A stretch of 64,000 nucleotides of DNA from Cyanidioschyzon merolae (taxonomy: Eukaryota). The DNA is taken from the NCBI GenBank assembly GCA_000091205.1, contig AP006499.2; one strand, 5' to 3'. Within the stretch, counting starts at the first letter, position 1. Every line of letters begins with the position of its first letter. A model generated the notes under the pieces. The model was given only the letters and a program-made list of their open reading frames with translations, was not told where the DNA came from and made no database searches. Below, in pieces: positions 1-42,216 of the stretch. Made by a program: the position numbers and the translations under genes.

Positions 1-1018
1 CGCAAGGCGGTTTCGCATAATCCACTGGAAGCGATCTCCACGATGACTAAAGACCGAGTCCGAGGCACTTTTCTATGCGAAGAGAAGAGACAGGAGCTCC
101 TGGGGGCATACCCCGTGTAACATATCTCGCTGATGTCGCATGCCGTTCCGTTGATGGCCACCAAAATAGGAGGTTTTTTTCTCGACCGGAATTGCTTATC
201 TTACGAGACATGTTGCGTGAGCTTCCGTCATGAGCTTGTGCACAAGCCTCCGATAGACGACGTTGGGTCTCCCTTCATCTTCTGTTGGCTGGCGAGAATT
301 GCTGCACCATCGAATCGCTTTGTAAGAGAAAATCGATAAGTTGGAGGATGTGTGATTTGAGCGTGCTTCATGTCAGTAAAGCAGAAGCATGCGGACGTGT
401 GCATACGCATTGGATGAACCATTCGGCTCTTTTAAGGATCTTTTTTTTGAGGGTGTCGCCGAATCCGGTTCATCCCAGGCACGGTACGCGTTCCAGCGCC
501 ACTGCGTCGGGCGGAGCCACACTGGGGATACGATCGAGCATACGAAAACGACGTATGCGTCCGCAATCCCTTACTGCTTCACTGCGCACGCCACTGCTGT
601 AGACTAAAAATACGTATGGAGAAAAGTCGAAATGCAGCCCGAGAGCCAGCAGTTCCGTTTTCCATGATGATCCTCTGCTCCCGTTCGTGAAAGCGCAGTC
701 TGCTTCGCCGCAGCCTGTGCCGCACGACACACCGATGGCGCTGTCGCGATCCTTTCATGAGGCTGTGCCGATGCCGCTCCAAAAAGCGCAACGCACTACC
801 CATGCCTTCGTTCTACCACGATTGCAGGGGCGTTGATAAGGCACTCTTGTGGCGACCGGCACTGGGTGCAATACAAACGCACGAGCGCTGCCACTCGGCG
901 CCTTGTCTTCTGGTGCAGCAACCCGCCCGATCCTTGTTCGGCAGCGGCACAGCGCCGGTGGTGCAAACGAGGCGCTCATCGCATCCTATTCGGACTGGTG
1001 TGCGTGCTTCGATCCGTC

Positions 1019-2254
1019 ATGAGTCAGGAAGCGTTGTTTCGTGACTTGCAGCTCATCCAGCGTCTCAATCATATGACGCCACTGTGGATTTTAGAAGACC
1101 CCAGCACCTTCACGTACGCGGGGTTTGTGCCTATCAAGACTGCGTCGCGGGAGAATCGCGCTTGCTTCTTGCGCGTACAGTGTCCAAAAGGACCCGCCGA
1201 CCTGTGTGACGCCTCATATGCGCTTGAAAGTTGGGCAGAAAACCTCATTTCATATTATGGCCTCGATGGCGCCCTGCGAAAGCGGTTAGAGCGAGCGCAC
1301 GACCTAGCAGAGTTCGTTGCTGAGGTCCAGGACCTGCTCGAGCGCTGCGCAGATGGGCGTGCAGCGGTTCCACGAACGCCGGTACCACCACCGGCACCTA
1401 CAGTGGCAGGTAGCACGTTGTTGGCGACGCTACCGGACCCTTTTTTCTACCGGAGACTGTGTACGGATCTGAAGCATATCGGATGGTCTTGCCTGCGGCA
1501 TCTGGCGATGGATTTTGAGTCTGTCACATTGCAGGCTATAGACACGGGCGGGCGCCTCCACGAGCTCCAGATCCTCGACCTCATGCGCGAGCAACCAACT
1601 TGCATAGCAGCGCTGCCATGGCGTCCAACGGCAATTTGCAGACCTGCATCCGAAGACGGACGCTTATTTATCTCGATCTATGAGACCTATCGTCGATTCC
1701 GCAGTATGCTCGATGAACTTGAGCCTTACTTCCGCGTACTGGATGACTTTGATGCGCACACCTGGGTTCTCGAGCCGGAGCATCCAACGTATGCGGTGTC
1801 GTCAAGGCGTCTGAACCTGGCGCCACAATGCTCACTAGTCGTGGAAATCGACCCAGCAGATCCATGCCGCCTCCCGAATGTTCGTTTCTTTGGTAGCGAA
1901 CAGCGGATCGAGGCCATGCGGAATCGTTTCTTTGAGCGCCGAGCACTCTGGGACTCGTCCGCGCGGACTCCGCGAGAGAACCTACAAGTCGTGCTCATGA
2001 TGGCCTTGCCGCCGCGTCCAGCGGATATGATGCAGAACGCAAAAGACAACGAGTGCGGTATTTGCTATACGTATGAGCTGGAGGGTGAGGGCATCCCCGA
2101 TTGGGCGTGCGATGCGGCATCATGCGGGCGACCGTATCACCGCAGCTGCCTGCGCACCTGGCTTGCAAGTATTCCGGAGACACGGCAGCTGTTCCAAATG
2201 TATCATGGCTCTTGTCCGTACTGTGGCGAACCGATTCAGGTGAGCAAGATCTGA
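1019..2254 (+). CDS. FANCL: FANCL-like E3 ubiquitin ligase (C-terminal PHD/RING finger of the Fanconi anaemia core-complex ligase)
   Basis: ORF 833..2254. The track start is TTG. The first in-frame ATG is at 1019 (MSQEALFRDLQ). The last 65 aa, CGICYTYELEGEGIPDWACDAASCGRPYHRSCLRTWLASIPETRQLFQMYHGSCPYCGEPIQVSKI, match the FANCL C-terminal zinc finger pattern CGICY..(D)..C.N..CG.PFH..CL.EWL........F....G.CPYC..PI almost position for position. TGA stop. Confidence 0.65.
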   Translation: MSQEALFRDLQLIQRLNHMTPLWILEDPSTFTYAGFVPIKTASRENRACFLRVQCPKGPADLCDASYALESWAENLISYYGLDGALRKRLERAHDLAEFVAEVQDLLERCADGRAAVPRTPVPPPAPTVAGSTLLATLPDPFFYRRLCTDLKHIGWSCLRHLAMDFESVTLQAIDTGGRLHELQILDLMREQPTCIAALPWRPTAICRPASEDGRLFISIYETYRRFRSMLDELEPYFRVLDDFDAHTWVLEPEHPTYAVSSRRLNLAPQCSLVVEIDPADPCRLPNVRFFGSEQRIEAMRNRFFERRALWDSSARTPRENLQVVLMMALPPRPADMMQNAKDNECGICYTYELEGEGIPDWACDAASCGRPYHRSCLRTWLASIPETRQLFQMYHGSCPYCGEPIQVSKI

Positions 2255-3784
2255 ACGTATCGCTCAAGGACTGGGCGTAGACGTTAAAGCTGACGCATCG
2301 CCCTCGCCGATAGGCACCGATTTCTTCCACGAATCTGATCACAAGTTACGCTGATCATGCTGCATATGCGTTGCAAAGTGGATAAAGATGCGCATTCGAA
2401 CTGTGGCTTTGAAACGCTCTCAGCGACAAGCACGGGAGCGTCGTCAAGATCCCGCCATTCCAGACGCATTGCTGAACGAGCACTGAACATGCTGCATCGC
2501 GCCATACACGAATGCAATTCGTTCAGAGCACATGGCACGAATCACGAAGCGATTTTTCTCCGGATCAATCTAGCTGGGTAGCGAGATAAGGTGAGCACCT
2601 GATGAGACGCGACACACACGCTTGGAATAGGTGCGCTCGAAACTACACCGGTGTTGGGTGCCAACCGCGTCTGCAGGTCGCATCACAGTCGCTCGTCTGC
2701 CACGGACGTCCACGAAACCCCGACAAGTCTGGAACCTTCAAGCAAGTCTATGATCCGGTTCGGGTCCAGGATCCGTTCAACAAACTGCTGCTTGTAGCGG
2801 GGCGCCTATGATCCAGCATTCGAACCCGGATCCGATGAGGGCGGGCGCTTTCCACGCAGCCCGAAGACGCGGTTCATCACGGCATGCTCTTGGTAGCCGA
2901 GTTCGTGCATCCGTCGGCGAGCTGCTCGATAAATTGACGATCGTGCTGTATCCACATATCATGGTGGCTAGTGTGCTGCCAAGTAACGTGTTCAAGCGAT
3001 CACGCAGACTGTTCAGCTGTGATCATCGTCGAACGACGCTATTCCACGACAGACGGGATGCCTACCGGACGCATGTCATCCGCTGTGATGAACGTGGACG
3101 CAAACCGCGCGCGTTTGACAGCGTGTCTCTGAAGTGAACGGTGCTGTCCGGTTATCACAAAAAGTTCGACGTCTCGATCATCGTATTCAGGTCTCTGCAG
3201 AGAAGTCCGGGATTTGTGGATCCGTTGCACCACGAGGAGCTCGCTCATCATTGCGAGCGCCACGCGCCCGCGATGCTTTGTCCAACGCAAGATCGCTGGC
3301 GAGGAAACACTGCCGAAGAATCACAGCGTACTCGCTGCACGAGGGCCGTTACGGTCAGGTGCTGAGGACCCAGAAGCGCCCATGCGGAACGCAATAGAGC
3401 AAGGCAACTCCGCCAGGCTGCGCCTGGAAAGCGATGCGCTATCACCGACAATCGGGCGAAGTTTGCAGCTCGGTCCCCGAAACGTCTGAATGCGTCAACT
3501 GGCTAGACCAGCAGCTTGACCACGGAGCAAACGGAGCACCGCGGTTTGCTCGCGTTCGGATACCCCGTGACAAGCTCGTACATTCCAGACGCCAGAGCAC
3601 GACAGCAGGCAACAGGGCGTGCGGCGCAAGCGATGCGCTCAGCTTCACCGCGCTGTTCTCGATCGCTCGACTTGTGATCGACAGCCGACTACTTCCACAG
3701 GGAATGCCCATCATGACAGTGCCGCTGGTACGCTTCGTACACATGCGCAGGTTTCTCGTTCACAACGAATACCATAAACCGCGC

Positions 3785-4768
3785 TCACAACGCACTGCGC
3801 TCTGTCTCGAGTCTGAGCAGAACGCGCACCGGACGATGATCCGACAGATCATAGCGCTCAATATCCGGCCACTGATCCGCTTCCAATTCAGGCGGCAATA
3901 ACTGAGCACTTTGAAAGATCTTCTCCGAGGCCCAGTCCAAAAAAACATGATCGCAACAGATCTGCTTACCGTCGTGCGTCAGGTGCGTCACAGAGCGCTG
4001 AGGTAAGCGGCAGCGGACGTACATATTGGACTCCAGGTAGCGAAGAACGGGATCCTCAGCACCGAGGGTATTCCAGTCGCCACAGAGCACAACGACTCGA
4101 TGGCAAGGAGGAATCTCCTCACGAGCCTGTGCCGTCATATGATGCACAGTTCGAACCTGGTGCTTCCGCAGAGCGTTGTCCCAGATATGATGTGGATACG
4201 TCAGATGTACATTCAGGACAAGAAGATGCATATGCGGGGCCCACGTGGGTCGAAGGTGCACCAGCAGGCCGATACGGTCACCGAGTGGGGTCAAAGTGAA
4301 GCATCGCCACTTTTCTACATGAAAGTCTGTGCGCCGAAAAAATACCGCCAGACCGTCTCGTTTGCTACCAGGACGCTTCGCTTTGATCCAGCGAAAGGTC
4401 TCCGCGGGAAACCGCGTTTGAAAGATCTCCTCATACGCAGGTTCGAACAGGTACTCTTGGAGACAAATGATGTCTCCTATGAGTTTTGGTTGCTCACGAA
4501 TGCCATCCTCGCGCTGTTGGACTGTGCAAGTGCCGTCCGCGAGGAACGTGCACGTTCTTTCTGCTCTCTGCTGCCAGCGTTGCGGCTGCGACCACTCCGG
4601 GCTCCCTCCACTGCACCCGCTGTTCTGAGAACGCTCACAGAGCGCTGGCGGACGCACAGCGTAACACGGAGCCAGTAGATTGAAAGTAACGATACTGAAC
4701 TGTAGAGGTTTTGGGTGACCTCTCAGTGTAAAGGCGGCGTCATGCGCGTGCTGCTGTTGGCTCGCCAT
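3785..4768 (-). CDS. endonuclease/exonuclease/phosphatase (EEP) family protein, CCR4/nocturnin/angel-like
   Basis: 327-aa ORF with an ATG start (MASQQQ). Motifs FSIVTFNLLAPCY near the N-terminus, VLCGDWN, and the C-terminal YDLSDHRPVRVLL (the SDH catalytic His of EEP enzymes). Convergent with FANCL. Confidence 0.6.
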   Translation of the reverse strand: MASQQQHAHDAAFTLRGHPKPLQFSIVTFNLLAPCYAVRPPALCERSQNSGCSGGSPEWSQPQRWQQRAERTCTFLADGTCTVQQREDGIREQPKLIGDIICLQEYLFEPAYEEIFQTRFPAETFRWIKAKRPGSKRDGLAVFFRRTDFHVEKWRCFTLTPLGDRIGLLVHLRPTWAPHMHLLVLNVHLTYPHHIWDNALRKHQVRTVHHMTAQAREEIPPCHRVVVLCGDWNTLGAEDPVLRYLESNMYVRCRLPQRSVTHLTHDGKQICCDHVFLDWASEKIFQSAQLLPPELEADQWPDIERYDLSDHRPVRVLLRLETERSAL

Positions 4769-4821
4769 TTCACTGGTTTGACGCGCCTTTCCAAAAAGCG
4801 TTTTTCAGGGCCAACACCTCA

Positions 4822-4845
4822 GCTGCTGCTGCTGCTGCTGCTGCA
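4822..4845. repeat. (CTG)7 trinucleotide repeat. A (GCC)6 tract follows at about 5253-5273
   Basis: cagctgctgctgctgctgctgctgcagag, then gtcgccgccgccgccgccgcctct. Both are intergenic, between the EEP gene and R1. Confidence 0.8.
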
Positions 4846-6242
4846 GAGATACTCGGTCAGCGCCAGCAGCGCCAGTATGTACTGTGGCTCGCACGTGCAG
4901 CAAAGGAAAAGTTTTGGCTTCACTGTAACCAGACAATACAACGACGCACATGGAATGGGAGATTCTAGCTGGGACCCTGTATGCCCCGGGCGCACGCTCG
5001 ACTTGAGCATTTGTCTCCAAGCAATGCTCGTAAGCGGGCAGTTGAACTCTATCGGAAACAGTAGAAAGCAGCAGTTTATAAAGTTCTCTATGCAGCGTCG
5101 GCAACGCGTCGAGACTATTCATGACACGAGAACTCCGCTGGAATCAACAGAAACCAGCTATTTCAAAAGTCCTCCGTACACACCCAAGATGCTGGTAGGC
5201 ATGCCCTCGTGCTTATCTTCCTCAGGAAAAGCGGTCCAGTGAATCGGACGGAGTCGCCGCCGCCGCCGCCGCCGCCTCTACTCAGGCTAGACCATGAACG
5301 AAACCGAACAGCGATCGACCGCGGCATTATCCGCACACAGCGTCCACTACTGTATCACAAATAAAAATAGCAAAGGTCGACGACGAGCTTCGCGGTTCAC
5401 TGTATACTGTCGCTTTTCGAAGCGTCGCTTACATAGGCTCGTCTGCTCATGCGGAGGAGCGTCATTGCATGCGTGCTCGTGCTTGCACACAAGGCTGTGC
5501 CTGAGGCGTCGCTCGGCATGGATATCAAGTTCCATCCTTCGTCTCGATTAGTGTCCAGTCGAGCTGCATACTCTTTGTGACAACCAGTCTCCAGGTCGTT
5601 GTAGACGCCACATCGAACGGAGCGTCTATGATGAGGTGCTCGAGCAATCGAAGCAGCAACATCCGGTAGAAACGTAAAGCCTGCAGTTTTCCCACAATAT
5701 CGACGATAAACCTTCGCATTAGCGCTCTCCGACCGCACTCAGTGTCGCTCACGAAACTCGAGGATATCGTGCTGCTGAGAAACGAACGCTGTTCGCCTTG
5801 CTTGCCACCCTATCGCACTCAGAGAAAAACAGCACTGCACGAACACACAGTTGCAGCAGAGGAAAGGCTGGCGCCCTCGTCGAACTGTCCCTTTCGGAAA
5901 CGCTCACTTGTGCGCCTGCTCTTGGCGCATGTTACGCTCAAACCGGAGAACAGCCCTTCGGGTTTCCTCCAGCCAGAACTTGACGTTCGGTACTCGGTAC
6001 TGCTGAGCAACGTACATACCTGTACAGGTACCCATTAGGAATACAAAAGTTACCGTGGCAATTGACATTGCGCACAGTGGACGATTTGTACTGCAAAACG
6101 TGTGTCCAGGTGCGAAACGAAACACGAAACTGCGAACGAAAAAACGGACGGGAGTGTTCTGCGCCAGCGCCGCGCCGATCGTGAAGCCCTCCGTACACTC
6201 GCCGCGAATCGCAGGCTATGCTCCTGCCTGATGGGAATGAAT

Positions 6243-7598
6243 CACGGAACTGCTCGATCTAATCATGTCTTGCGAATTTTTCCAAACTTGTATCGGTATG
6301 CAGCCTCGACTTTCCAAGTGCAGCGATACTAGTTTACGGGTTCATTTGTCGATTTTAGGATGATCGGTCGTGGTTTCGGTGTGGTGCATGCGACTATCTG
6401 GCGCTGGATCTCGCTAGGTGACTGGAATCAAGATCATTGGCGGCATTCGCGACTAAGGGCTCGTAACATAACCGACATGATCACAGCGTTCAGACGTGCA
6501 AGCCTCCAGGATTCTCCTTTTATTACGTGTTGTATACGCGAATCATAATCTTCATTCACGTTTCCGATCTTTCTGTTTCAAGGCAAGTTGGTTGTGCAGC
6601 AATGCGCTCCGCTGGATTGGCGATGAAGGGATCTCGACGTCGTCTCATTACGACTTGCAGAATATGTTATTTCAATCGCTCACTGGACTTGCAAACTCAA
6701 ATAAGCGATCCCTGGTCGAAAGACAAACACCCTAATCTTCGCGCCCGTCGACGAGACGGTATGCGGCACCAGCACCCTGATACCTCGCACGGGACAGGCT
6801 GCCAGAGGCTCCCGAGTCGCCTGTTCGCAAGCGCAGAAAAGCGCCCTGGACGCTGGGTTCAGTCGTCGCAGCGACCGCTGCCGGTGTAGCGCTCGTCACC
6901 GCTTTGCATGGAGTGAGCGTGCATCGCTCAATATACTTCGACTTGTCCTTCGAGCGGCGCTTTCCTTCGGGTAGTTGCTTCATCGTGGACAACATCGCGC
7001 TCCACGTACCGTCTACCGAGAGGAACAGCGTACGCTTCCATGTAAAACAGGCGGCGTGCTCCCCGAGAGGATCGCCCAGCACAAGCCCGTGATCGCTGCG
7101 TGCGACACTGGGCTCGGAAATGGAGCACGGCATCCAAGGCAGCCTTCTTCATTCGTCAAGGGCATGTACTGAGCGACGAGGCAAGCGTGCGCACGCCACT
7201 GGGTGCTTCTCCAGTGAGAACGTACGGCGTACGTGTGAGAGCACCTGATCACAGTTTCGTGTTACCGCTGCGAAGGACGCCACGAGTCTCTATGAAGACA
7301 AAATGAAAATCGCGAGCGAAGCAACGTTTCCAATTCCAGTCTGTGCATGGAATGCGTTGTCAACAGCGCGCAGCGACGGCTTCGGGGCCTGAACGCTGCC
7401 ATCACCATCGGTCGACTGCTGGCATCGAAGCAGGCGGGACACCAGAGACCAGCGTATATCAACATCTGATGCAAGAACTAGGAACAAGGACCCGTCGCAG
7501 AGGAGGCCCGCAAAGGCCGGTGTTGATGACGGGCGGAAGCGACGCTGACGTTCGATAGTACGTCCGAGTTGGAGGACCCGTTCCATGTTATTTTGCTA
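6243..7598. repeat. R-family dispersed repeat, copy R1 (1356 bp). It is about 99% identical to 23336..24691 and in the same orientation
   Basis: Identity is visible by eye from cacggaactgctcgatctaatcatgtcttgcgaattttt... through ...cgttcgatagtacgtccgagttggaggacccgttccat, with only scattered SNPs (gtatcggtatgc vs gtatcgatatgc, actagttt vs actggttt). The ORF track gives the same peptides at both loci. Confidence 0.9.
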
Positions 7599-7745
7599 TC
7601 GGTTGAGTATCTCCGAATCGGTTCCCTATGAAGCAACGACGTGCCCGGCATTGGCGGGATCTGGAGCACCAGATGCGCGCACGACTTCACTGCGTCATCG
7701 TATCCTACATATGGCGCGCTGCGGTGACGTCGAGGGTTCGCTGCA

Positions 7746-8492
7746 ATGAACTCGCAGAAAACGATAGATGAAGAGGAACTGCGTATCCCCCGGGATGATC
7801 CAAGTGAGTGGATCAGTTCAGGGTCTGTAGAAAGGTCGACAGTGCTTTTTATCTGGAGTTCGGCGCCCGCGGAAACGCTGGCGGCTAGTCGCAGTGTTTA
7901 TCGTGCGCTTCAGGCGCAGAGGCAACTGCAGCCGGAGCTACGACTGCTCTGTTTCGATTTGCATGAACAAAGATCAAAGCTCTCTAAGGTTCTTGAGACA
8001 TACAAGGTTGGTGCGGTGCCAACTGTGCTCGCGTTCCCGGCGCACGCGCATCAACCCAGCGACCGTGTCGAGGGTGTCTACCCGGCACGCGTTGGCGCGC
8101 TGGTAGAACAGCTGGTTCACAACTCGGCTGCGGCGGATACGAAGACGGTGCGGCAGCGGGTTGAGAAGATGATTAGCGAGCACCCGATACTGCTTTTTAT
8201 GAAAGGAACGCCTGAGCGGCCTCGGTGTGGGTTTAGTCAACAGATCGTGCAGCTTCTTGTGGGGGATCTCAAACTGCCACGTGCCAGTCTTGCCACATTT
8301 GACGTACTAACTGACGAGCAGGTCCGTCAAGAGGTGAAAGCATACAGTCAGTGGCCGACATTTCCCCAACTTTACGTACGAGGTGAGCTCATTGGCGGCC
8401 TTGATGTCTGCCGCGAAATGGCACAATCTGGCGAACTCGCGGCATTACTGGCATCCGCGACGCGCGATGAACACGGAACAACTGGTCCTTGA
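7746..8492 (+). CDS. monothiol (CGFS) glutaredoxin with an N-terminal thioredoxin-like domain (Grx3/PICOT architecture)
   Basis: ATG at 7746. The C-terminal domain LLFMKGTPERPRCGFSQQIVQLL...WPTFPQLYVRGELIGGLDVCREM carries the CGFS active site and the Grx fold motifs (TFPQLYV, GGLD). The first ~120 aa are thioredoxin-like with no CxxC. Confidence 0.75.
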   Translation: MNSQKTIDEEELRIPRDDPSEWISSGSVERSTVLFIWSSAPAETLAASRSVYRALQAQRQLQPELRLLCFDLHEQRSKLSKVLETYKVGAVPTVLAFPAHAHQPSDRVEGVYPARVGALVEQLVHNSAAADTKTVRQRVEKMISEHPILLFMKGTPERPRCGFSQQIVQLLVGDLKLPRASLATFDVLTDEQVRQEVKAYSQWPTFPQLYVRGELIGGLDVCREMAQSGELAALLASATRDEHGTTGP

Positions 8493-9524
8493 GGTTAGCG
8501 CTGCAGACAACGATTGTTTCAGCTATGGTTAGTATGGGCAGGGTTGCGCGTATGGTGACTCTGCGGACGAGTGCAGAGAAAGCGGACCTGAGTCCAAGAT
8601 TCCCGGACTCTGTGCACGAACGAAGCCAAAACCTTCGCGGAGCGGCCTCACTGGTGGACACTCGTGAACCGCATATTTTCTGAATCTTTTGACGGTATTG
8701 ACCACCTGGAAGATGACCGGCATCGCGTGAATCGATGCGCAGGATTCCATAGTATTTTTCCAGATAGAATACTGGGGCACGCAGATTCATACAGCTGGCA
8801 TCTCATGCAGCGTGCCTTAGGGTGATGTCGTGCAGTGCTACAAATTCCGAGTGCGTGCTGCGGAGATCTTCGTAAGCTGAAAGAGGCAACGCGATTTTGC
8901 TGGAACAGGGGTTCCATGGAAAATCGAGATATCGAGCACCTGCCCTGCCGATGATGGCACTGGCCCGCCTTGACGTGTTCTTGGAACACTGCGACGCCAT
9001 TTGATCAGGATTGCGTAAAGAACACGCTGGAGCTCTGAACCGCACTGATCGCTGCTGAAATATCGCCCTGGATTCTGGGTCTGTGGTTTCGGCCAGAACG
9101 ATCGTCGATGGAAAATTTTCCTCGTGATACTACCCCAGAAGCAGTCTTAAATGCAGAACCCTGATGCCTGGGCTAACTGTACAAGCGCGCCTTTCATTTT
9201 TGTTCCTTCGTCCCGCTCGTATTCAACGAATGGAGTCTATTCCGTGGACCGAAGAGAGATGGTGGGAAATTTTATACTATCATAACGTACTTGCGAAGAA
9301 TGGCATTCACTCTACAAGTCACTCATTCCGCGATCATCAGTGGGTTATTGAGCAAAGCTGCTCGTCGTCCTTGTTCTCGTCGTCGTGCTCTTATCACGGA
9401 TTCTGTTCTACTCTGTGCCCATCGTCACCTACTCGTCAATCTTTTTAACTCGATATGTTTTCTTAAAAATAGCATAACAGAATCCATGGGATGTGAAGTG
9501 TCCACACCGTTGATATGAACCGCG

Positions 9525-11453
9525 ATGAACGTACATGAATGGACAAAGAAGTACGCACACTGTCATAGGAGACCGTCACGCAGTGAACTACTCAATATCC
9601 ATCTAGTATTAGAACGCGAATGCGTATCCCAGGAGGCAGGCGGCATCGTTTCGCTCGAGGAGACCTCGTTCAGGGGAAACGGTAGCGCCGCACAGTGGTA
9701 CGCAAAGAGGGGCAAACCGCTGTTTGTAAAACAGGTACTCTCGAGCACTCCAACAACATTAGCCCTTGCGGATTTTCAATCGTAGAGTTACGACGAAATC
9801 GCCAAATGAGCAAGATCGTTCAGCACCACTCCATTAACTGAAGCACGCTTCATGGTGCCTGCTTCTCAAAGTCTTCTCGCTGCCCGTATGACACTGCCGC
9901 TTTCCAACACTCGAAAGCAGCCAGGGAGTGCGTGGCTCAGATCGACATTGACAAGCACTTCGTGCCAGCGTATTCTGCCTGGTTCAATACAAACCAATGT
10001 ATCTTCTCTGTTGTCATACGCCATTTTGATGTTCTAAGACGCATGGACGAATCGTTTGCAACCGTGGCGTCGCTCGTCATCAAGTCGTTGTGTACCTTTG
10101 CCAGCCGTGAACTACGGTGCTGCCCCTGTGCTCTTGCGGGGCAGCAATCGAAAAGATTTGCCTCGGTCAGTGGATATATGCTGGTGACGGCGACGGTGAC
10201 GAGCTTGTAGTTAAGGCGTAGTGGATATACAAAGACGAACGGAGAGCTTCGGTGATGCTGCCAAACTAGTACTTCTGAATTCCGCGAAGAAATCAGGTAT
10301 AGAGCATGTCGATTACATGCGTGTCGCCCCGGCACGTAGAGGAAGCAGGTTACTATTGCACTAGTCTCCGCGAGCAACAAGGAAGCGTTCTCACGACCTC
10401 GCGCAGAGCGCTGGCAGAGCTTGATGAAGATTTCTCGCTTAGAGGGAGGAAGTGGGAAGGGTTTTTAAAGAATGATAGAGGGCAACAGAGTATCGAGCTG
10501 CAAAGCCTTTGTCAAAAATTGGCATGTGTCGCGCGACGAGACTCATGTTCAGGTGTTCAGGATAGATGAAGAGCAAGACTTTATGATCAGTGTGGATCCC
10601 GGATTCAACAACTTAATCGCTGTAGCTGTCCCTCTACATCCAGAGGACAGAGCTGAAAATCTGAACGGCGTGAAGTTGTACCAGATCAACTTTTCCAGGC
10701 CTGGGTACCAACAAGAGTCGGGTATGGCAGACTCAAGGCGGCATACCAACAACTTGAATGATTGTGTCAGGACTGGTCTCGACGCTGTGTGCACCGTGTC
10801 GTGCAGCGTGCGCTGCTTTGCACGCTTCATTTAGAGAGTACATCAGCGTAAAAGTGGCTCGTGCGGACGATCTTTGGCTGGAGTATGCGACTTCGTGCTA
10901 TGACCGCCAATGGATTGGGGTTTACTGAGGCAGGGAACGTGCGTCCGCCAACGTCTTCAATGAGTTGGACAAAGAAATGACCGATACGTATTATCGTTTG
11001 GCGTCAGCCTATCACGCAAGACGTGCTGAGGCGCGAAAGGAGTGCATCTCTGATCCTTTGATGAGCGCGTTCAACGAGTGCACGAATCGATGCTGCACGA
11101 CTCGCGTCGATGAGTTCAGGACTGCATTCATGCATCAGGGGCGCGGCCGCACATTGGAGTAGGCAGAGAAGGGGCGCGTGAAGAAGAGACGGACGCACGA
11201 GGTGGTATGCGGTAAGCTGATCGAACGTCAGGTGACGAGGGAATCAAAATTGAGAGGCTTCCCATGTCGTACTTCCACCGGCAAGCATGCGCGCAGGCAC
11301 TCTCTGCACCAAAGCTTGAAAGCCTCGATCAACCTGCGAAATTGTTCCGTGCTTCCGGAGCGCCCAGCGCCTTTGTGTCGAGCAGATAATCGAGGGAATC
11401 GTTTATTGGTGAGGTCGGGGATTTTGCTGACACACACGGAATACTTTCGATAA
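9525..11453 (+). mobile_element. degenerate Fanzor/TnpB-like (IS200/IS605 OrfB, RuvC-fold) element, copy D. It is pseudogenised and split over 5 or more frames
   Basis: ORF 10472..10834 contains VQVFRIDEEQDFMISVDPGFNNLIAVAVP, the RuvC-I G-I-D-P-G block with Asp intact. ORF 11178..11453 contains KHARRHSLHQSLKASINLRNCSVLPERPAPLCRADNRGNRLL. That is a degenerate RuvC-III DFNAAINIRRCAxL...ANF block in which the Asp is replaced by Ser. ORFs 9525.., 9932.., 10306.. and 10965.. cover the N-terminal and linker regions in other frames. Confidence 0.6.
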
Positions 11454-11931
11454 AAACAGTCAATGGCTACGAGACGTGTCATTGGATTCCCGCCTGTGGC
11501 AAAGCACAAATGCAGCACAGTACGGTACGGTCAGCGGTCCATCAGGCTTGGAGTGCCGTCTAAATGCATGAGTATGGACCGGAAACGCTTTTCCTGGGCT
11601 ATCGGAGAACGTGAACGGTGTTCCATTATTCGATATTACAGAGTAAAGCACCATGCCAATCCACAGGCTATCTAATGAGTGAATTCATTATGCGACGCTG
11701 GTCAACTGGAAAGCAGCCCGCAAAGTCCGCCTCTGGTGCGAGGAGCCGTCAATTCAGACACAGAGCACTCGATTCAAAAATCTGGCAAAACTTTTTTCGG
11801 AACGATCCATCCACGAAAGATTGCTCGGAGCATGCAGCTTGTTGGCAATCGTCCTTCGCAGGAATCGGGGAAGCAGCGGCTGCATCCGGCAAATGCATTG
11901 CTACTGATTCGTTCCGAATCGCGCTTGACCT

Positions 11932-12852
11932 CTATCGATTCGCTTGGTACGTATGCCGCATTTGCTTCGTCTCCGGCGCTTGGAGATCTTGTGCGGAGGG
12001 AGAGCGTTTCAATCCTCTGGCAAAAGCACTTCGGATATCAAGGCCGGGTTTTTTTCCGGGCTCATCGCGTCGAGGCTCTATCAATGACGGACCTTCGTTC
12101 TTGACGGAAGACACTGTATTCGATACAGGGTGCCAAACGATTTGCTCAGTCGGCTGCAGACAACGATGCACCGCCACACGAGCAGGCACCTGCTCAACGT
12201 CGAGCCATGCCTGGAGCTGATCCTCGGTTTCCAAAAGTGCCGGCATGCGGTTATGCATCCACTGAATTTTGTCGCTGGCTGCGACAGTAAAAATCGCAAA
12301 TCGATTCATCTCTGTCTCCTCAACGAACAAGGCGGCCATAAACAACGGTCGGTCGATCATGTCGTGCGCGTTCCGAGGCGCCAAGTGGTCCTTGCTCTCT
12401 CTCTTTGTAACACCGTGATAGATAAAATAGGGTATTCGGGATGCTTTCGTCATTGTTTTGATTTTACCCACGTCCTGTTGCTCACCAGGGGCATCTGCAG
12501 CGCTCCACTCGTAAAACCCGTTCGCAATAACCACAGCGCGCTGACCTGCATCTAACGCTGACCGGAAGCTCGCCTTTTCAAGAGCAGTCTCCGCCCGCAC
12601 GTTGATGACGATTGGAGGGCTCTCACCCTTACCAAAAGTTCGCCCACGAATCGGAAACGCCCAGCGCATTGGTTGCAGAACACGCTCGCCTGAAACAGTG
12701 CGCAGCAGTGGTACCGTTTGCTGCGGAGCTACATTGTAGCGCGGCTGGTAGTGGTAGCGCTTTTCCTGGTCCTTCGCGTCAGCCCAGCGAGTTGTTCCAG
12801 CAACTCGTTCAAGCTGTTCTCGAGAGTAGTACAGCGCGAAGCGTCCGCACAT
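11932..12852 (-). CDS. SRAP-domain protein (HMCES / YedK family abasic-site DNA-protein crosslinking peptidase)
   Basis: 306-aa ORF with ATG start. It begins MCGRFALYY (catalytic Cys2 directly after the initiator Met), followed by the SRAP hallmarks YNVAPQQTVPLL and a conserved His in the C-terminal half. Confidence 0.75.
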   Translation of the reverse strand: MCGRFALYYSREQLERVAGTTRWADAKDQEKRYHYQPRYNVAPQQTVPLLRTVSGERVLQPMRWAFPIRGRTFGKGESPPIVINVRAETALEKASFRSALDAGQRAVVIANGFYEWSAADAPGEQQDVGKIKTMTKASRIPYFIYHGVTKRESKDHLAPRNAHDMIDRPLFMAALFVEETEMNRFAIFTVAASDKIQWMHNRMPALLETEDQLQAWLDVEQVPARVAVHRCLQPTEQIVWHPVSNTVSSVKNEGPSLIEPRRDEPGKKPGLDIRSAFARGLKRSPSAQDLQAPETKQMRHTYQANR

Positions 12853-12957: not shown

Positions 12958-12995
12958 GTGCGTGCGTGCGTGCGTGCATGCGTGCGTGCACGCCA
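12958..12995. repeat. (GCGT)n / GCATGCGT alternating purine-pyrimidine microsatellite in the SRAP/ArgD intergenic region
   Basis: gcgtgcgtgcgtgcgtgcatgcgtgcgtgcacgcc. Related tracts occur at about 15046-15090 and, as the reverse complement (ACGC)8, at about 42186-42217. Confidence 0.85.
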
Positions 12996-23211: not shown

Positions 23212-23335
23212 AGCAGGAAAGTGCTCGAAACGTTCATAATTCATCTGGATATGTTTTTAGTCGCTTTAGTAGGTTTCCGCTGGGATCCGAGAAACGCACA
23301 CGCATACCCTACACTTGTGTCGGATTGAAATGGAG

Positions 23336-24691
23336 CACGGAACTGCTCGATCTAATCATGTCTTGCGAATTTTTCCAAACTTGTATCGATATGCAGCCTC
23401 GACTTTCCAAGTGCAGCGATACTGGTTTACGGGTTCATTTGTCGTTTTTAGGATGATCGGTCGTGGTTTCGGTGTGGTGCATGCGACTATCTGGCGCTGG
23501 ATCTCGCTAGGTGACTGGAATCAAGATCATTGGCGGCATTCGCGACTAAGGGCTCGTAACATAACCGACATGATCACAGCGTTCAGACGTGCAAGCCTCC
23601 AGGATTCTCCTTTTATTACGTGTTGTATACGCGAATCATAATTTTCATTCATGTTTCCGATCTTTCTGTTTCAAGGCAAGTTGGTTGTGCAGCAATGCGC
23701 TCCGCTGGATTGGCGATGAAGGGATCTCGACGTCGTCTCATTACGACTTGTAGAATATGTTATTTCAATCGCTCACTGGACTTGCAAACTCAAATAAGCG
23801 ATCCCTGGTTGAAAGACAAACACCCTAATCTTCGCGCCCGTCGACGAGACGGTATGCGGCACCAGCACCCTGATACCTCGCACGGGACAGGCTGCCAGAG
23901 GCTCCCGAGTCGCCTGTTCGCAAGCGCAGAAAAGCGCCCTGGACGCTGGGTTCAGTCGTCGCAGCGACCGCTGCCGGTGTAGCGCTCGTCACCGCTTTGC
24001 ATGGAGTGAGCGTGCATCGCTCAATATACTTCGACTTGTCCTTCGAGCTGCGCTTTCCTTCGGGTAGTTGCTTCATCGTGGACAACATCGCGCTCCACGT
24101 ACCGTCTACCGAAAGGAACAGCGTACGCTTCCATGTAAAACAGGCGGCGTGCTCCCCGAGAGGATCGCCCAGCACAAGCCCGTGATCGCTGCGTGCGACA
24201 CTGGGCTCGGAAATGGAGCACGGCATCCAAGGCAGCCTTCTTCATTCGTCAAGGGCATGTACTGAGCGACGAGGCAAGCGTGCGCACGCCACTGGGTGCT
24301 TCTCCAGTGAGAACGTACGGCGTACGTGTGAGAGCACCTGATCACAGTTTCGTGTTACCGCTGCGAAGGACGCCACGAGTCTCTATGAAGACAAAATGAA
24401 AATCGCGAGCGAAGCAACGTTTCCAATTCCAGTCTGTGCATGGAATGCGTTGTCAACAGCGCGCAGCGACGGCTTCGGGGCCTGAACGCTGCCATCACCA
24501 TCGGTCGACTGCTGGCATCGAAGCAGGCGGGACACCAGAGACCAGCGTATATCAACATCTGATGCAAGAACTAGGAACAAGGACCCGTCGCAGAGGAGGC
24601 CCGCAAAGGCCGGTGTTGATGACGGGCGGAAGCGACGCTGACGTTCGATAGTACGTCCGAGTTGGAGGACCCGTTCCATTTTATTTTGCAA
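23336..24691. repeat. R-family dispersed repeat, copy R2 (1356 bp). It is about 99% identical to 6243..7598 and in the same orientation
   Basis: See R1. The boundaries are where identity with the R1 flanks is lost (gaaatggag|cacggaactgctcg on the left and ccgttccattttattttgc|aaggggtacagc on the right). Confidence 0.9.
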
Positions 24692-25374
24692 GGGGTACAG
24701 CGCCGTCTGCTGAATACCATTGAAGACTTGAGCGAGCGTCACGCGATACTGTCGTGTGCAGTGGAAGACACTGAAAGCGCGCGGCATTGGACGAGCACCA
24801 CTTGCCTCCCACGGAACGCGTACGATTATTGCCGGCGATCGATGCTCCCTTCCATGTGTCTCGCTGGAGAAGCCAGAAGCGCGCAGAATCTACAGACCGT
24901 GGCAGTGCTGCATGCGGAGTACCCGTGGATAGCCACCTGCGTCACACGGTATCTTTGTACGACTGGAGCAGCGCGTTTTCTGGAGAACAGATCCGGTGCA
25001 ATGGTCTGGATGGTAAGCGATCTCGCAAGACCGAATCGTTACCGTATTGCAGACTCGGCCACAGGTATACGACGCTGCAAAGAACAACCTTTTTTCCGAG
25101 TTATCTGAATGCACATTGCACCAAGTTCGTACTCAAACAACGAGTCCTCTACACAAGATACTCGAAAGCAGCTCGCACATTAAACGTGAATGCTGAACCT
25201 CCGCGACTCGACATACTTGCAGTGCCTCCGAAACTACGGATACGCTCTCTGCATCATGTGCGAACTACCTCGGGAACGTTACGCACAGCAAACGTGTGCG
25301 CTGATTGACCAGCATTCGACATGCTTGCCGTGCTTCCAACACAAACTGTCGCGACACACGACGCTGCCCGGATA

Positions 25375-26823: not shown

Positions 26824-27177
26824 GACCGCTTCTCGGAACGTAACCGGCGACACACGGCGAAACCAGGAGGCTTTCAAACTGGCCTAGAGAAGAACGCCTT
26901 CATACGCAGGTGCCCGATGAAAAAAGATTCGCACGCCCACACCCCTGGAAACAAACGTCTTTTAAAAGAAAAAAGTTGCTGCCAGTGGTACAGCAGTGGC
27001 AAACACGCCCTATACAAGAAGTCACCAACTGACTTGCAGACGCCTCCCAGTTTTTTTTCGACCGGCCGCCTACTACTGGTTTCAACTTTTTCTCATATAA
27101 TGCCACTTTGAGAGGTTGTCCAATAAAGTTCCCTCTTGTCGACTCTGAAGGTTTTTTCTCCATCGCCGCACATCTCC

Positions 27178-29287
27178 TTATACATTGATCGCGGCATGAA
27201 AGCCACGGTTCACAAACTCCATACGTTTCCTGCCATCTTTGGTTGTACTTGTCAATGCAAGTAGTCCACGAACTTTCGCCATCCTTTCCATATGCTCTTC
27301 CGTCAGCGGACCGTATTTTGCTATTTCCTCAGGGCTCCGCTGACACTTTTCCATCTCCACTCCCTGAAGTGTACAACCCAGCTAATGGTGTGTATAGGAC
27401 GTTCGGAACTCATCCATCGGTATTGTAACAAAACGCCGTGCACACTCTTTGAATGTTCTTGTCGTTGGAGCTGGCGTAGTCCCTTTTTGGGTCATCTAGC
27501 GCCCTGCTCCGTACGCCACTACCAGCCTCTGATTTTCATCCTCCTTCAAGGCGCTCAACGCATTGAAAAAATTCGCGAACGCCCGCTGCTTCCCGCATTA
27601 CATATTCATACGCAAACGAACCCACCGAGGCTTTGTATACTCCTCCCACAGCGCATCCCAATGGGCAACACGAACTTCCATGAATTTCCGAAAAGCTTCA
27701 AAGTCCGCTCTTCGGCTCGCTCAAAGCTTCCAGGTGATCCTTCATTCCTGCATTCCGTGTCTCGATTCTCTTCCTCGCATTCATGATTCCCGATTCTCGA
27801 TAGTATCTCGCTCACGAGAACCTCAAAAGACGCATATCTTTCTGACGTAAGTTGCCGTTGTTAGCAACTTCTGCACGCTTGGGTGCAGCGATGGTTACGA
27901 TATTCGTATTCCCAGGGTTCGTGCCAATGACAAAATCGTTATCCTCTACATCCTGCGTGGCAAGATACGCCTCCTTCTCATCTCCACGCTTCGTCACGGC
28001 CGCAGCCGAGGGCGGAACTCGACGATCTGCCTCCAAACGCCGATAGTGAACACACTTGGATACTTCACCGGTTTCGATCATCCTAGTGAATACCTTTTGT
28101 TTGCTCGTATTGAGAAGTTTGAAATTGAGGATATTCTTCCAGTACGTCTCACGGTTTTCGCCGGAGAATTCCCGCCTGCTGGCATTGACCTCCGGACTGG
28201 TCTCCCTCATGATGCCGTGAAGGATTCTGGAGTCGATAGTCACGAAATGTGGCTTGATGTTCCACAATGGAACTACGTTGAAACGCTTCCCCATTAGGGC
28301 AGCCTTCCGTCTCTTCCATTCTCCATTTCTCTCCTCTCTCAGCTTCATCTCTGCCTTGCGTTCGAGTTCTCGGTCCAAAAACACGAAATAGCGTAACATG
28401 AGGCGATAGTATCTTTCCTTATCTTTTTTCAACGCTGATATCTTTTCTGCTGGATTTGCCAGCCCCAGTACCGCACGATGCTCTTTAATAGCCGCACGGA
28501 TGACGGAATCTTTATTCTTTCTCCTGTGTGACGCCATCTCTCCGACGAATTCGGTCTCATCTTTATGTTGGCAATCGTTCGTGATGCCATCGATACTGGC
28601 CCATATCCCCTGGCAAGAGAGACCCCGGTGCAGCGCAAAGATGGAGCGTATCAGAAAGCATTCGAGGTTCAAGGTCATAGGGTCCCTCAGGTTCGTGAGG
28701 TACTTCATCGCCCCATGGCAGTAAATATTCCCGTCACCGCTGTATCGAGTACCCTCGCAGCGGCATTCCGCGAAGTTTTCCTGGAGGACATGCACTCGCT
28801 CATTTCTCCAAGACGTTTCCGCTGTGCCAACCATCAGGTGGCGAATAACGGTCTTGTCGAAAAATTCCACCCGCACCTCGACCGTTTTGATGTCCGTCAC
28901 GTCTTCGTTCATCTTCCTCACCAAATGCATTATTCTTGCAAAAGCCTTGCAATCGCTCATGCAGTAGTGCGCGATACGGTCTCTGAGATCCTCCCGCAAA
29001 TTTTGCTTCTACGGATTCATGATATGCTTGAGACGACAGGCTTTCGGTACTATTTCGACGTAGTGTCGTCTTTCCTCGAGCCATTGGCGTCGGGCCGCCT
29101 GCCTTAGCTTCTTCGTCTCATCCTGTTCCTCTCTGCTCTGCACTGTTTTTTCTTTGTTTCCGCCTGCCGGCGGTAATAGCCCTCTAGGATCCTCCACTTC
29201 CATGTCCAAACTTCCCTTTTTCATTTTTGAAAACGAATGCACTTTGAACTCCCCTGCTATAAACCCCGAAAACTCACTTGAATACAC
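27178..29287 (-). mobile_element. degenerate Fanzor/TnpB-like element, copy A. It has the longest surviving ORF (395 aa) but mutated catalytic sites
   Basis: ORF 27812..28999 ends ...[42 protein letters not shown]. That is the RuvC-I block with Asp replaced by Asn (GTNPG instead of G-I-D-P-G). ORF 27178..27360, MAKVRGLLALTSTTKDGRKRMEFVNRGFHAAINV, is the RuvC-III block with Asp replaced by Gly and an immediate stop. Frame breaks occur at about 29009/28999, 27812 and 27606-27360. The N-terminal ~350 aa aligns with the N-terminal fragments of copies B and C. Confidence 0.65.
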
Positions 29288-29699
29288 TCACTTGAGGGTT
29301 GAAACAAAACTGAAATAAAAGACTGTATTTTTCGACGACTTCAACATCGTCGCAGCTTGTACTTTAGAACGAGAAGTCAACGAATATTCAGGATCGCGTT
29401 TCGCTTCAACGGCGAGATGCGCGTCGTGTCCCATGTATACCAGGTATGGAGGTGCGTCTATCGACCGCGCTACATAGAACAAATAACAGAGACTAACGAT
29501 CAAGTATCAACGATATAGAGATTTATTCCCCCTCGATGATAAATGTGAAGAGAGGAAAAAGCTTTCAGTATTGTCGAAGGCCTACCCTCGAGGCGGAAGG
29601 TCCCGCGAGCCGGACAAGTCTGCCAAGCTTGCGCTCTGTGCGACTCTGCAGTTGCGGGTACTTTAGCGAGACCTAAGCTGAAACTCGTACGCAACGCAA

Positions 29700-29930
29700 T
29701 TCTTTCTGGTGCGAGGGGCAGCTAAGCTCCGTCTGGGCGTCGCCCTGGTCGCAGTGGTCTCCAAGTATATCGCTTCGCGCTGCCATAGGCAGCACGTCTA
29801 TCTGCGCAGCTTGCTTGCCCCCAGAATCATGATGCATCCCGATTAGGTATTGCGTGAACCACACCTCGAGCAGACGCCCTCCGTAGTACGGCAAAGCCGT
29901 TGTATCCCCATGTTGCATCTGCTCCAATGG
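29700..29930. repeat. ~230-bp segment related to 48190..48400 (about 75% identity, same orientation)
   Basis: ccgtctgggcgtcgccctggtcg...gtgaaccacacctcgagcagacgccctccgtagtacggcaaagccgt here, versus ggcgtctgggcatcgccctgacc...catgaaccacacctcgagctggcgccttccgtagtatggcgaaaccgc at 48.2-48.4 kb. Minus-strand ORFs 29673..29927 and 48032..48424 share PYYGGRLLEVWF / PYYGRRQLEVWF and QAAQIDV / QAAQIDL. It lies about 400 bp beyond the 5' end of Fanzor-like copy A. Confidence 0.7.
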
Positions 29931-36103: not shown

Positions 36104-36399
36104 AATGAATGATGCATCGTGGTAGTCGACGAGCTGACGCGTGAGAAAGACACTGGGAAGCTGTTTTGTAGGCGCAGGGCGACCCCGGTGGCGGCGCTCC
36201 GAGCGTCCGCGGCAGGCACGATGAATACGATGCACCGGTGCCCTTCAATCGATGTTGCCTGTAGATTTTAAAGAATGGCAATTTTAGGATTGGTAATGCG
36301 TAGCAGCATCTCGAAGGGAATGGTGGTGCTTTCATGGTTCACCGACGGCAACCGGGAATCCCTTGGATTCTCGTTACACCGGTGTCAGAATAAAATGCA

Positions 36400-42185: not shown

Positions 42186-42216
<31 letters not shown>

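Follow-up and report, generated by a model that had tools for sequence, protein, structure and literature searches.

Ectopic gene conversion between dispersed repeats is known for the Ty elements of yeast, the Alu and L1 elements of primates and duplicated genes, where its signature consists of paralogues too alike for their age, identity that is contained within the region of homology, diverged edges, and polymorphisms found in both paralogues. In Cyanidioschyzon merolae, homologous recombination is highly efficient, and gene targeting by such recombination is routine (e.g., PMC3764038). Tc1/mariner elements, for their part, are known to reinsert nearby. Among transposable elements, the closest described systems are PUl-1 and PUl-4 of Pythium ultimum, which combine a TA duplication and 24–33-bp inverted repeats with a mariner-type transposase and a TnpB/Fanzor C-terminal motif (Bao and Jurka, 2013; PMC3627910), and CMe-1A (TE-N2_CMe) of C. 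merolae itself, which probably corresponds to the "WSV486-like interspersed repeat" (Nozaki, 2007, PMC1955436; Bao and Jurka, 2013).

The window analyzed here, a stretch of 64,000 nucleotides, belongs to chromosome 17 of C. merolae 10D, and its Grx and PGM2-like ORFs are identical at every residue to BAM81985.1 and BAM81990.1, respectively. Comparison of the window with itself (BLASTN) yields a direct, gapless alignment of 1367 bp between positions 6230–7596 and 23323–24689, with 14 mismatches (98.98% identity) and an offset of 17,093 bp, so that the two direct repeats at ~99% identity and 17 kb apart that an earlier note on this DNA had reported are indeed there. Four of the 14 mismatches fall within the first 13 bp, which leaves a clean tract, the presumed gene-conversion tract, at 6243–7596 on the plus strand of the first copy (hereafter A1), with its counterpart at 23336–24689 on the plus strand of the second copy (A2). 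Within 6244–7596, there are 10 mismatches in 1353 nt, and the longest run free of mismatches, 567 bp, occupies 7021–7586. The copies are separated by six syntenic host genes (Grx, SRAP, an ArgD-like gene, DUF1995, a 518-aa maspardin-like ORF and a PGM2-like gene), rather than by four intact ones as first counted. The flanks of A1 and A2 show no homology in any combination, with all scores inside the shuffle range, which upholds the view that the repeat is a discrete element and not part of a larger segmental duplication. The earlier dismissal of an LTR pair likewise stands: TG…CA ends and a 4–6-bp target duplication are lacking, the ends being CAC…GTG with TA flanks, and there are no retroelement genes between the copies.

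Repeats carry a general risk of misassembly, and a single real copy placed twice would mimic such a pair. This is, however, extremely improbable here: 14 sites distinguish the copies, whose ends are also unlike, the 10D genome is a finished, "100% complete" assembly (PMC1955436), and independent contigs tie each copy to its own flanks. In particular, both copies are found on a metagenome contig of 100,263 bp (Ga0078972_1001189, loci L007 and L008), at a spacing of 17.1 kb and with ~99% identity to the window, and each copy is joined to its own unique flanks in this contig as well as in many shorter ones, so that the check for an assembly artefact called for at the outset comes out in favor of two genuine copies.

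The pair is not the whole family. Sensitive BLASTN combined with nhmmer finds five copies of one dispersed family inside the window (A1–A5), i.e., three more at ~60% identity than previously noticed, and BLASTN and nhmmer detect three to four further copies on other contigs. With termini aligned across the copies, A1 (6219–7607, plus strand, 1389 bp; nhmmer match 6226–7608) and A2 (23312–24695, plus strand, 1384 bp; nhmmer match 23319–24701) are complete but dead elements of the Tc1/mariner-IS630 type. The other three are old: A3 (36377–37399, minus strand) is without the first ~330 nt of the family model and ~59–62% identical to A1, A4 (42322–43661, plus strand) is ~56–60% identical to A1, and A5 (2–672, minus strand) is a left half truncated by the window start (all by BLASTN/nhmmer). 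Compared with A1 and A2 and with one another, A3–A5 are only 55–61% identical, and across the window copies and those on other contigs, pairs other than A1/A2 show 53–61% identity. A4 is followed by a second copy of its last ~90 nt (43677–43765). A scan of one metagenome collection with a 133-aa ORF of the element retrieved the A1 and A2 sites and no others; a third, 99%-identical "master" copy may nevertheless exist elsewhere in the genome.

All the family copies seen are dead relics. An intact transposase ORF is absent from all eight copies examined, in which the longest stop-free stretch on the plus strand, of 219 codons, is in a frame different from that of the transposase remnant, and no insertion polymorphism was seen among the sampled strains. 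The similarity between members is at the DNA level, in agreement with the earlier assessment: tblastx gives similar scores in each of the six frames, and codon periodicity is absent from the substitutions. Since the decay of dead copies is neutral, this codon-phase test says nothing on the ancestral ORF.

The family ends are inverted repeats of ~30 bp that start with CAC (consensus CACYGGTGTCRGAWTAAAATGGAAC). The best-preserved left end is that of A2 (23312–23343, plus strand; CACTTGTGTCGGATTGAAATGGAGCACGGAAC), identified by its inverted match to the right ends of A3 and A4: it agrees with the reverse complement of the A3 right end at 23 of 30 positions (z = 6.4, the score being reached by 0 of 300 shuffles) and with the A4 right end at z = 3.6. 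The inverted repeat within A1 itself is weak (z ~2.5), and the A1 ends also align with those of the family. Alignment of the termini places the right inverted repeats at 7578–7607 in A1, where the part past 7596 is un-homogenised, and at 24671–24695 in A2 (both minus strand). TA dinucleotides border both elements, at 6217–6218 and 7608–7609 for A1 and at 23310–23311 and 24696–24697 for A2. The left TA of A1, a putative target-site duplication, has the same offset as the TA of A2 and those at the left ends of two further copies, A6 and A7, and the right ends of A3 and A4 also read GGTG followed by TA (36375–36376 and 43662–43663, respectively); the duplication is read from the element flanks, the pre-insertion sites in relatives being unalignable. 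The true ends lie 24 nt (left) and 6–11 nt (right) beyond the edges of the ~99% tract, and at these edges themselves there is neither a target duplication nor an inverted repeat. Thus, contrary to the earlier note, which had seen no terminal inverted repeats or target-site duplications, the elements at 6219–7607 and 23312–24695 have both, with TA on each side; these features were overlooked owing to their position immediately beyond the ~99% tract.

The frameshift-corrected consensus of eight copies matches the Pfam profile DDE_3 with 41.2 bits (cut-off, 28.6 bits; E = 2e-10; profile positions 3–143 of 146) and, weakly, HTH_33; an earlier four-copy consensus matched DDE_3 with E = 2.3e-4 and the NCBIfam model "IS630 family transposase" with E = 2.4e-4. 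The family consensus also aligns with the mariner transposase of PUl-1 over the DE…DN region (E = 5e-6). The DDE_3 match is a property of the reconstructed consensus, with single copies, A1 included, falling below the threshold; accordingly, no Pfam match is found in the six-frame translation of A1 itself, and a PDB profile search with the transposase remnant returned nothing. The decayed, frameshifted DDE_3 remnant occupies 6732–7020 on the plus strand of A1, with the first D in …APVDET… and the second D in …FIVDNIALH…, and its counterpart in A2 is at 23825–24113 (plus strand). The coding capacity that had been left open is thus that of a decayed IS630/Tc1-type DDE transposase, encoded by the consensus on the plus strand. 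Given the CAC-starting inverted ends of ~30 bp, the TA flanks and the DDE_3 match of the consensus, the family is a 1.39-kb relic of the IS630/Tc1/mariner superfamily. This settles the identity of the repeat as a dead Tc1/mariner-type element. It also provides C. merolae, whose class II elements have so far been described only loosely, with a TA-flanked DDE_3 family of which the ends are defined.

Other assignments were rejected. Two minus-strand ORFs (98 and 133 aa, in one frame with two stops between them) have a weak codon score and no homologue by word-based search, and the 63 similar short ORFs retrieved by an exhaustive search are antisense readings of family copies; a conserved "ATG" at the right end is part of the inverted repeat. 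No RNA genes were detected with Rfam at the gathering and E-value thresholds or by a tRNA search, and inspection of the termini by eye found no Helitron ends, LTR ends or poly(A) tail. An insertion of organelle DNA was ruled out on G+C content, and the 20 "families" of Rudenko and Korotkov are statistical repeats that offer no help (PMC11050394).

Both sites are empty in the relatives compared, Cyanidiococcus yangmingshanensis (L009) and a second species (L004/L010). The gap between the Exo_endo_phos and Grx genes is 1656 bp in the former and 1637 bp in the latter vs. 2978 bp here, and the gap between the PGM and FAD genes is 819 bp in the relatives vs. 2163 bp here. No element homology is present in the corresponding gaps of these relatives, whose intergenic DNA is unalignable with the window, so that the exact empty sites are not reconstructable. 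A1 and A2 are probably separate ancient insertions of one non-autonomous DNA transposon of the IS630/Tc1/mariner superfamily, which would have occurred in the lineage of C. merolae itself, after the split from the sister species sampled.

The differences between A1 and A2 are concentrated at the ends. In the outer, un-homogenised part of the left inverted repeat (6219–6243 in A1, plus strand), A1 and A2 match at 15 of 25 nt, so that these 25 nt hold as many mismatches (10) as the inner 1353 nt (Fisher p = 8e-14). The corresponding Jukes-Cantor distances are 0.57 and 0.0074, compared with ~0.6 across the family. The right outer ends differ by indels, with 21 nt (A1) vs. 16 nt (A2) following CCGTTCCAT. 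We propose, with a probability of roughly 0.7, that the near-identity of A1 and A2 results from ectopic gene conversion between two old insertions. While the other family copies drifted to ~55–61% identity, the interiors of A1 and A2 would have been kept or made alike by non-reciprocal homologous recombination, whereby a break in either copy would be repaired with the other as the template, and the conversion tract would start and stop inside the shared homology. Old divergence would persist in the outermost ~25 nt (left) and ~6–11 nt (right) because the tract must end inside homology. A point against this model is that identity changes sharply, not gradually, from ~99% to ~60% at the tract edge. 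Since conversion requires high identity, this model requires regular exchange between A1 and A2 since their insertion, and conversion was probably recurrent rather than a single event; a single long patch anchored on the short conserved terminal motifs is a mechanistically less common alternative.

The earlier note had attributed the near-identity to very recent transposition or gene conversion, and it is the second part of this statement that is favored. An active or trans-mobilised copy that inserted 17 kb away by "local hopping", with the 1% difference accrued since, would account for the 99% identical interior, for a discrete element with TA flanks and for the two sites that are empty in the sister species. 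However, a transposase moves the element end to end, so that the new copy would share its ends, whereas the outer left ends of A1 and A2 and the indel-bearing right ends are diverged like those of unrelated members. Recent transposition is further at odds with the dead state of all eight examined copies, which provide no intact transposase ORF, and with the presence of both copies in every sampled strain, at a distance of ~1% from 10D; we consider it quite unlikely.

The same ends bear on a one-off templated patch, in which a break in ordinary intergenic DNA would have been repaired with 1.35 kb copied from the other site, so that only one of the loci would be a true insertion. This view is favored by the lack of flank homology and by the limits of the ~99% tract, which show no duplication, and the 9/13 match at the left edge can be read as junction microhomology. 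Nevertheless, ends of the family type lie outside the tract at both loci: the left end of A2 matches the right ends of A3 and A4 as an inverted repeat (z of 6.4 and 3.6), the ends of A1 align with the family, and TA occurs at the expected offsets at both loci. Therefore, a family member was present at each locus before the interior was homogenised, and a templated patch is quite improbable.

Natural strains provide hints in the same direction. The copy-specific edges are unchanged across more than 10 contigs of other strains and are therefore old; for example, the outer left edge sequence of A1 is identical in copy 1 of another strain (L008). Inside the element, polymorphism among the copies is seen at sites 6550, 6559 and 7587. 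Site 7587 is polymorphic (G/T) in copy 1, T being the state fixed in copy 2, and, because this site is only 10 nt from the copy-1-specific flank, the combination must exist in real reads. In L005, the left edge is that of copy 2 but gives way to copy-1 states between 6235 and 6240. In the 100-kb contig, the copies are identical inside and have eight common states unlike either 10D copy, a pattern that in a short-read assembly might also stem from repeat collapse. Short-read metagenome assemblies can merge repeat copies, and only the edge-linked sites, namely 7587 and, in L005, 6240 and 6242, are safe in this respect. Taken together, the polymorphisms hint at continuing natural exchange.

The strain data also bear on functional constraint, i.e., purifying selection on copies recruited to a function, such as that of a non-coding RNA or of a regulatory module next to Grx and PGM2. 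Both copies occupy short intergenic regions near genes, A1 and A2 do not differ at all over the right 567 bp, and C. merolae repeats have been reported to be transcribed (PMC1955436). Yet there is no Rfam match, and the element differs between strains by ~0.6–0.8%, much like its flanks, despite the 99% identity between the loci, a combination not expected from selection on two independent loci. Furthermore, the other family copies decayed freely, and constraint leaves the strain-specific states common to both copies unexplained, so that we assign it a very small chance.

As the earlier note suggested, the pair is a plausible substrate for deletion or circle formation. With the 1.35-kb direct repeats around them, the six genes might be deleted, duplicated or released as a circle, a point of relevance to strain engineering and to the interpretation of structural variation among natural populations of Cyanidioschyzon. 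One 17.2-kb metagenome contig (Ga0209012_1002258) connects copy 2, on its PGM2 side, with the Grx side of copy 1. This contig might represent a genuine circle or tandem duplication of 17.1 kb that arose by crossing-over between the relics in a natural population, but an assembler loop can yield such a junction as well.

Downstream of the transposase remnant, A1 contains a second decayed segment that resembles the C-terminus of TnpB/Fanzor (7257–7421, plus strand; SCYRCEG…CMEC…RGLNAAITIGRLL), with a counterpart at 24350–24514 (plus strand) in A2; in the consensus, this segment reads ITVKCHRCEG…CMKC…NRDFNAAINILR. The motif sought was that of Fanzor1/TnpB, [TS][TS]-x-x-C4 zinc finger-x(5,50)-RD. 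The consensus scores 15.5–18.5 bits against the Pfam profile Cas12f1-like_TNB (E = 0.002–0.02), below the cut-off of 26.3, and is identical to the Fanzor1 C-terminus of CMe-1 at 22 of 72 residues (E = 1e-4). Neither an upstream RuvC-I aspartate nor a full-length (>600 aa) Fanzor ORF is present, the space before the zinc ribbon being filled by the DDE_3 remnant. The family might descend from a mariner-type element of red algae with a gene for Fanzor1, a TnpB-like, RNA-guided nuclease, in which case an internal deletion would have joined the last part of the transposase to that of Fanzor. Should this be so, the remnant would be the first clue to the transposase superfamily that moved the unclassified Fanzor1 elements (CMe-1A) of C. 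merolae. Jointly, this descent and a real circle or tandem duplication behind the 17.2-kb contig are rather doubtful.

The family resembles non-autonomous or dead IS630/Tc1/mariner (ITm) elements in its size of ~1.39 kb, TA flanks, inverted repeats of ~30 bp, and a single plus-strand ORF remnant with the DDE_3 catalytic core and a weak HTH_33 signal, but every family copy seen here is heavily decayed. Ordinary Tc1/mariner transposases are, moreover, without the zinc ribbon and the "RDFNAAINI" segment that directly follow the transposase remnant here. With PUl-1 and PUl-4, the family has the TA duplication, the inverted repeats and the mariner type of transposase in common, and its consensus aligns with the PUl-1 transposase and, with a Pfam match below the cut-off, the Fanzor1 C-terminus. 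PUl-1 and PUl-4 are 3.4–3.8 kb long with two full ORFs, whereas the family described here is 1.39 kb long and retains, of a Fanzor-like protein, no more than the last ~100–150 residues, a remainder of the kind expected from an internal deletion. CMe-1A shares the genome, the intergenic habitat and a similar age (its copies are ~80% identical to their consensus) with this family, and a full-length copy is present in the window at 26956–30121 (BLASTN and tblastx with the 3169-bp consensus). Nevertheless, the DNA match between the two is limited to ~29–66 nt around the NRDFNAAINI motif, and CMe-1A is reported to have neither inverted repeats nor a target duplication, both of which are found here.

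With respect to the process, ectopic gene conversion of this type is an ordinary event, of which A1 and A2 would be a neat example. Identity alone overstates how recent transposon activity was, given that, where the genome is compact and homologous recombination efficient, as in C. merolae, conversion can make ancient relics look newborn. Whereas the cases described elsewhere involve Ty, Alu and L1 elements or duplicated genes, the presumed partners in this case are dead DNA-transposon relics, located 17 kb apart in the very compact, haploid, recombination-proficient genome of an alga.

The window self-comparison returned one long high-identity pair, in which 6230-7596 (copy 1, A1) aligns with 23323-24689 (copy 2, A2) in direct orientation at a spacing of 17,093 bp, with 98.98% identity over 1367 bp, 14 mismatches and no gaps, bearing out the pair at about 99% reported in the earlier note. 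Four of the mismatches fall within the first 13 bp of the alignment, and 6244-7596 contains 10 in 1353 nt. The flanks of the two copies have no homology, their local alignment scores lying inside the range of shuffled controls, and each copy has its own TA-flanked ends; the reading of the repeat as a discrete element is correct. The genome of Cyanidioschyzon merolae 10D, whose chromosome 17 contains the window, has been described as '100% complete' (PMC1955436), and the ORFs of the window for the glutaredoxin Grx and the PGM2-like protein are identical to BAM81985.1 and BAM81990.1, respectively. Given that an independent metagenome contig of 100,263 bp, whose strain differs by about 1%, has both copies in the same arrangement, and that many shorter metagenome contigs tie each copy to its own flanks, the repeat is real, and an assembly artefact, one of the cases that the earlier note had raised against it, is excluded.

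Neither a tRNA search nor Rfam gave a family match for the repeat, the six-frame translation of copy 1 had no match in Pfam, and no long ORF was found in the repeat. Two minus-strand ORFs of 98 and 133 aa share one frame, with two stops between them; their codon score is weak, and a word-indexed protein search found no homologue of either. More sensitive BLASTN (word 7, +1/-1) detected three further relatives in the window, namely A3 (36377-37399, reverse strand), in which the first ~330 nt of the family model are missing, A4 (42322-43661, same strand), behind which its last 90 nt occur once more, and A5 (2-672, reverse strand), which is cut off by the window start. Directly after A4, 43677-43765 repeats the final ~90 nt of the element (model positions 1270-1358), so that the right end is partly duplicated in tandem. 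A profile search confirmed A1-A5 and nothing else in the window, and found no family A copy in the syntenic regions of two sister species (~62 kb).

When the antisense 133-aa ORF served as the query of an exhaustive protein search, 63 short ORFs resembling it were recovered from public data, and one of the clusters contains CMT320C (BAM83284.1) on chromosome 20, which is annotated as a C. merolae 'hypothetical protein'; family A, to which all these copies belong, is therefore dispersed across the genome. This cluster (P0279) groups CMT320C with antisense ORFs of family A relics; CMT320C is 36% identical to the 133-aa antisense ORF of A1, and its gene model, located within a dead transposon, is probably spurious. 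These matches led to three or four additional copies. All copies of the family are riddled with stops, and the pairwise identity between them is 53-61%, with the sole exception of A1 and A2 (99%).

The plus-strand ORF of a four-copy consensus matched Pfam DDE_3 (E 2.3e-4) and the NCBIfam 'IS630 family transposase' (E 2.4e-4). With an eight-copy consensus, in which one evident frameshift was corrected before the Pfam search, the DDE_3 match reached 41.2 bits (E 2e-10; profile positions 3-143 of 146), above the Pfam cut-off of 28.6 bits, and was preceded by a weak HTH_33 signal. Pythium PUl-1 has a mariner-type transposase to which the consensus can also be aligned, over the '…IDE…' and '…DN..H…' motifs (E 5e-6). 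Terminal inverted repeats and target-site duplications had not been obvious by eye; however, alignment of the termini of all copies revealed a ~30-bp inverted repeat that starts with CAC right after TA (A2 left end versus A3 right end, 23/30 matches, z = 6.4, 0/300 shuffles at that score). The flanking TA is present on both sides of A1 (6217-18 and 7608-09) and A2 (23310-11 and 24696-97); it also adjoins A3 and A4 on the right, and A6 and A7, two copies on other contigs, on the left. The size of 1.39 kb, the flanking TA, the inverted repeats and a DDE_3 core together identify family A as an IS630/Tc1/mariner element.

The elements run from 6219 to 7607 and from 23312 to 24695, so that the 99% tract (6243-7596) lies inside the element. 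A1 and A2 agree at only 15 of the 25 outermost positions of the left inverted repeat, compared with 10 mismatches in the inner 1353 nt (Fisher's exact test, p = 8e-14); the Jukes-Cantor distance is 0.57 in the outer part, which is the family-wide divergence (~0.6), versus 0.0074 in the inner part. At the right end, the distance from the conserved CCGTTCCAT to the flanking TA is 21 nt in A1 versus 16 nt in A2, and the sequences differ past 7596. These copy-specific edges are unchanged in more than 10 contigs of other strains. Since a transposase acts on the inverted-repeat ends and mobilises the entire element, a new transposition would give ends as identical as the interior. Old ends combined with a young interior fit conversion, because the tract must start and stop within shared homology; this pattern is the expected outcome when two copies already in place undergo non-reciprocal homologous recombination. 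Of the two origins proposed in the earlier note, very recent transposition or gene conversion, the evidence favours the second. Recent transposition as the source of the 99% pair conflicts with the divergence of the ends, with the lack of an intact copy among the eight examined and with the finding that all sampled strains have both copies. The best explanation for the near-identity of A1 and A2 is that two ancient insertions underwent gene conversion.

Cyanidiococcus yangmingshanensis and a second related species have no element at either site: once the element is subtracted, the C. merolae intergenic lengths agree with theirs to within 25 bp (PGM2 site) or ~45 bp (Grx site). Given these empty sites, and the family-type ends and TA flanks that each locus has of its own, A1 and A2 were independent old insertions. 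The same ends and flanks contradict the idea that one locus received a one-off templated patch where no element had been. Nor is the pair explained by selection that keeps the copies alike for a co-opted function, as this leaves unaccounted for the between-locus identity alongside ordinary between-strain divergence. The main weakness of gene conversion is that it requires the copies to have kept, over their whole history, enough similarity for recombination. A1 is located between Grx and a ~53-codon minus-strand ORF (5908-6068), where the relatives have a ~150-bp divergent promoter region. The product of this ORF, which presumably resembles STMP1-type short mitochondrial membrane proteins, is 92% identical to its Cyanidiococcus counterpart and 89% to that of the second species, at 77-81% nucleotide identity versus 71-79% in neighbouring genes; the codon score is gene-like, and no gene is called at the matching position in Cyanidiococcus.

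There are signs of continuing exchange. Position 7587 of copy 1 is G in strain 10D and four other contigs and T, the state fixed in copy 2, in two metagenome contigs (L006 and L008); since copy-1-specific sequence is only 10 nt away, this combination is present in real reads and does not result from assembly mis-joining. In the 100-kb contig, the interiors of the two copies show no difference from each other and have in common eight states found in neither 10D copy, a classic sign of concerted evolution, on which we place little weight because short-read assemblers can collapse repeats. The 10D tract has 0 differences in the right 567 bp versus nine in the left 790 bp, a contrast of marginal significance that fits a more recent conversion tract on the right side. 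Another contig, Ga0209012_1002258 (L005), is 17,230 bp long, i.e., one 17,093-bp repeat period plus 137 bp, and, as read over 1-7884 (7.9 kb), links the PGM2 side (left flank) of copy 2, across a single element, with the Grx side (right flank) of copy 1. Its left edge is a hybrid, of copy-2 type at the end and changing to copy-1 states between 6235 and 6240, with three private SNPs at 6253, 6255 and 6257. This contig is either a real 17.1-kb circle or tandem duplication, or else an assembler loop through the collapsed repeat; the assembly of other samples (L006 and L016) is broken at the repeat instead.

Other repeats are present in the window. CMe-1A, a C. merolae repeat that bears Fanzor1 and that we take to be the 'WSV486-like' repeat of Nozaki, is present as a full-length copy at 26956-30121 (minus strand; 83% identity to the 3169-bp published consensus over its whole length), and the host-gene-like minus-strand ORF at 27812-28999 is 70.6% identical to residues 71-465 of its Fanzor1 protein, CMe-1. 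A stand-alone copy of the CMe-1A 5' 635 bp (TE-N2_CMe) at 47982-48600 (68.6% identity to the consensus) accounts for the repeat pair 29592-30113/48098-48600. A third repeat family, B (37384-38811, 59114-60288 and 27028-27387; ~63-67% mutual identity) is in part ~70% identical to the CMe-1A 3' end (nt 2736-3092), has ORFs with no match in Pfam, and includes one copy that abuts the truncated end of A3. The Grx-SRAP intergenic region (8492-11932), 3.4 kb in the window versus ~0.8 kb in sister species, has lower G+C and no ORF of at least 150 codons; within it, 10778-11172 weakly matches CMe-1A nt 2382-2772, and the region probably holds another decayed Fanzor-type insertion. The only long inverted-repeat pair reported by the repeat finder consists of the microsatellites (GTGC)8 (12958-12989) and (GCAC)8 (42186-42217).

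Family A is not CMe-1A, a candidate that we rejected because the published consensus matches the family only at a short TnpB/Fanzor motif. On the 3' side of the transposase remnant, the family A consensus reads '…KCHRCEG…CMKC…NRDFNAAINILR', the zinc-ribbon and RuvC-III signature of TnpB/Fanzor; this segment scores below the Pfam cut-off (E 0.002-0.02) and matches the C-terminus of CMe-1 with E 1e-4, suggestive of a possible Fanzor-like tail. Mariner-type elements with Fanzor1 are already known (PMC3627910), and it is reasonable, though unproven, that family A arose from such an element by deletion. The A1/A2 element itself, a dead TA-flanked Tc1/mariner-IS630 relic, is of a known kind, and so is the proposed process, gene conversion.
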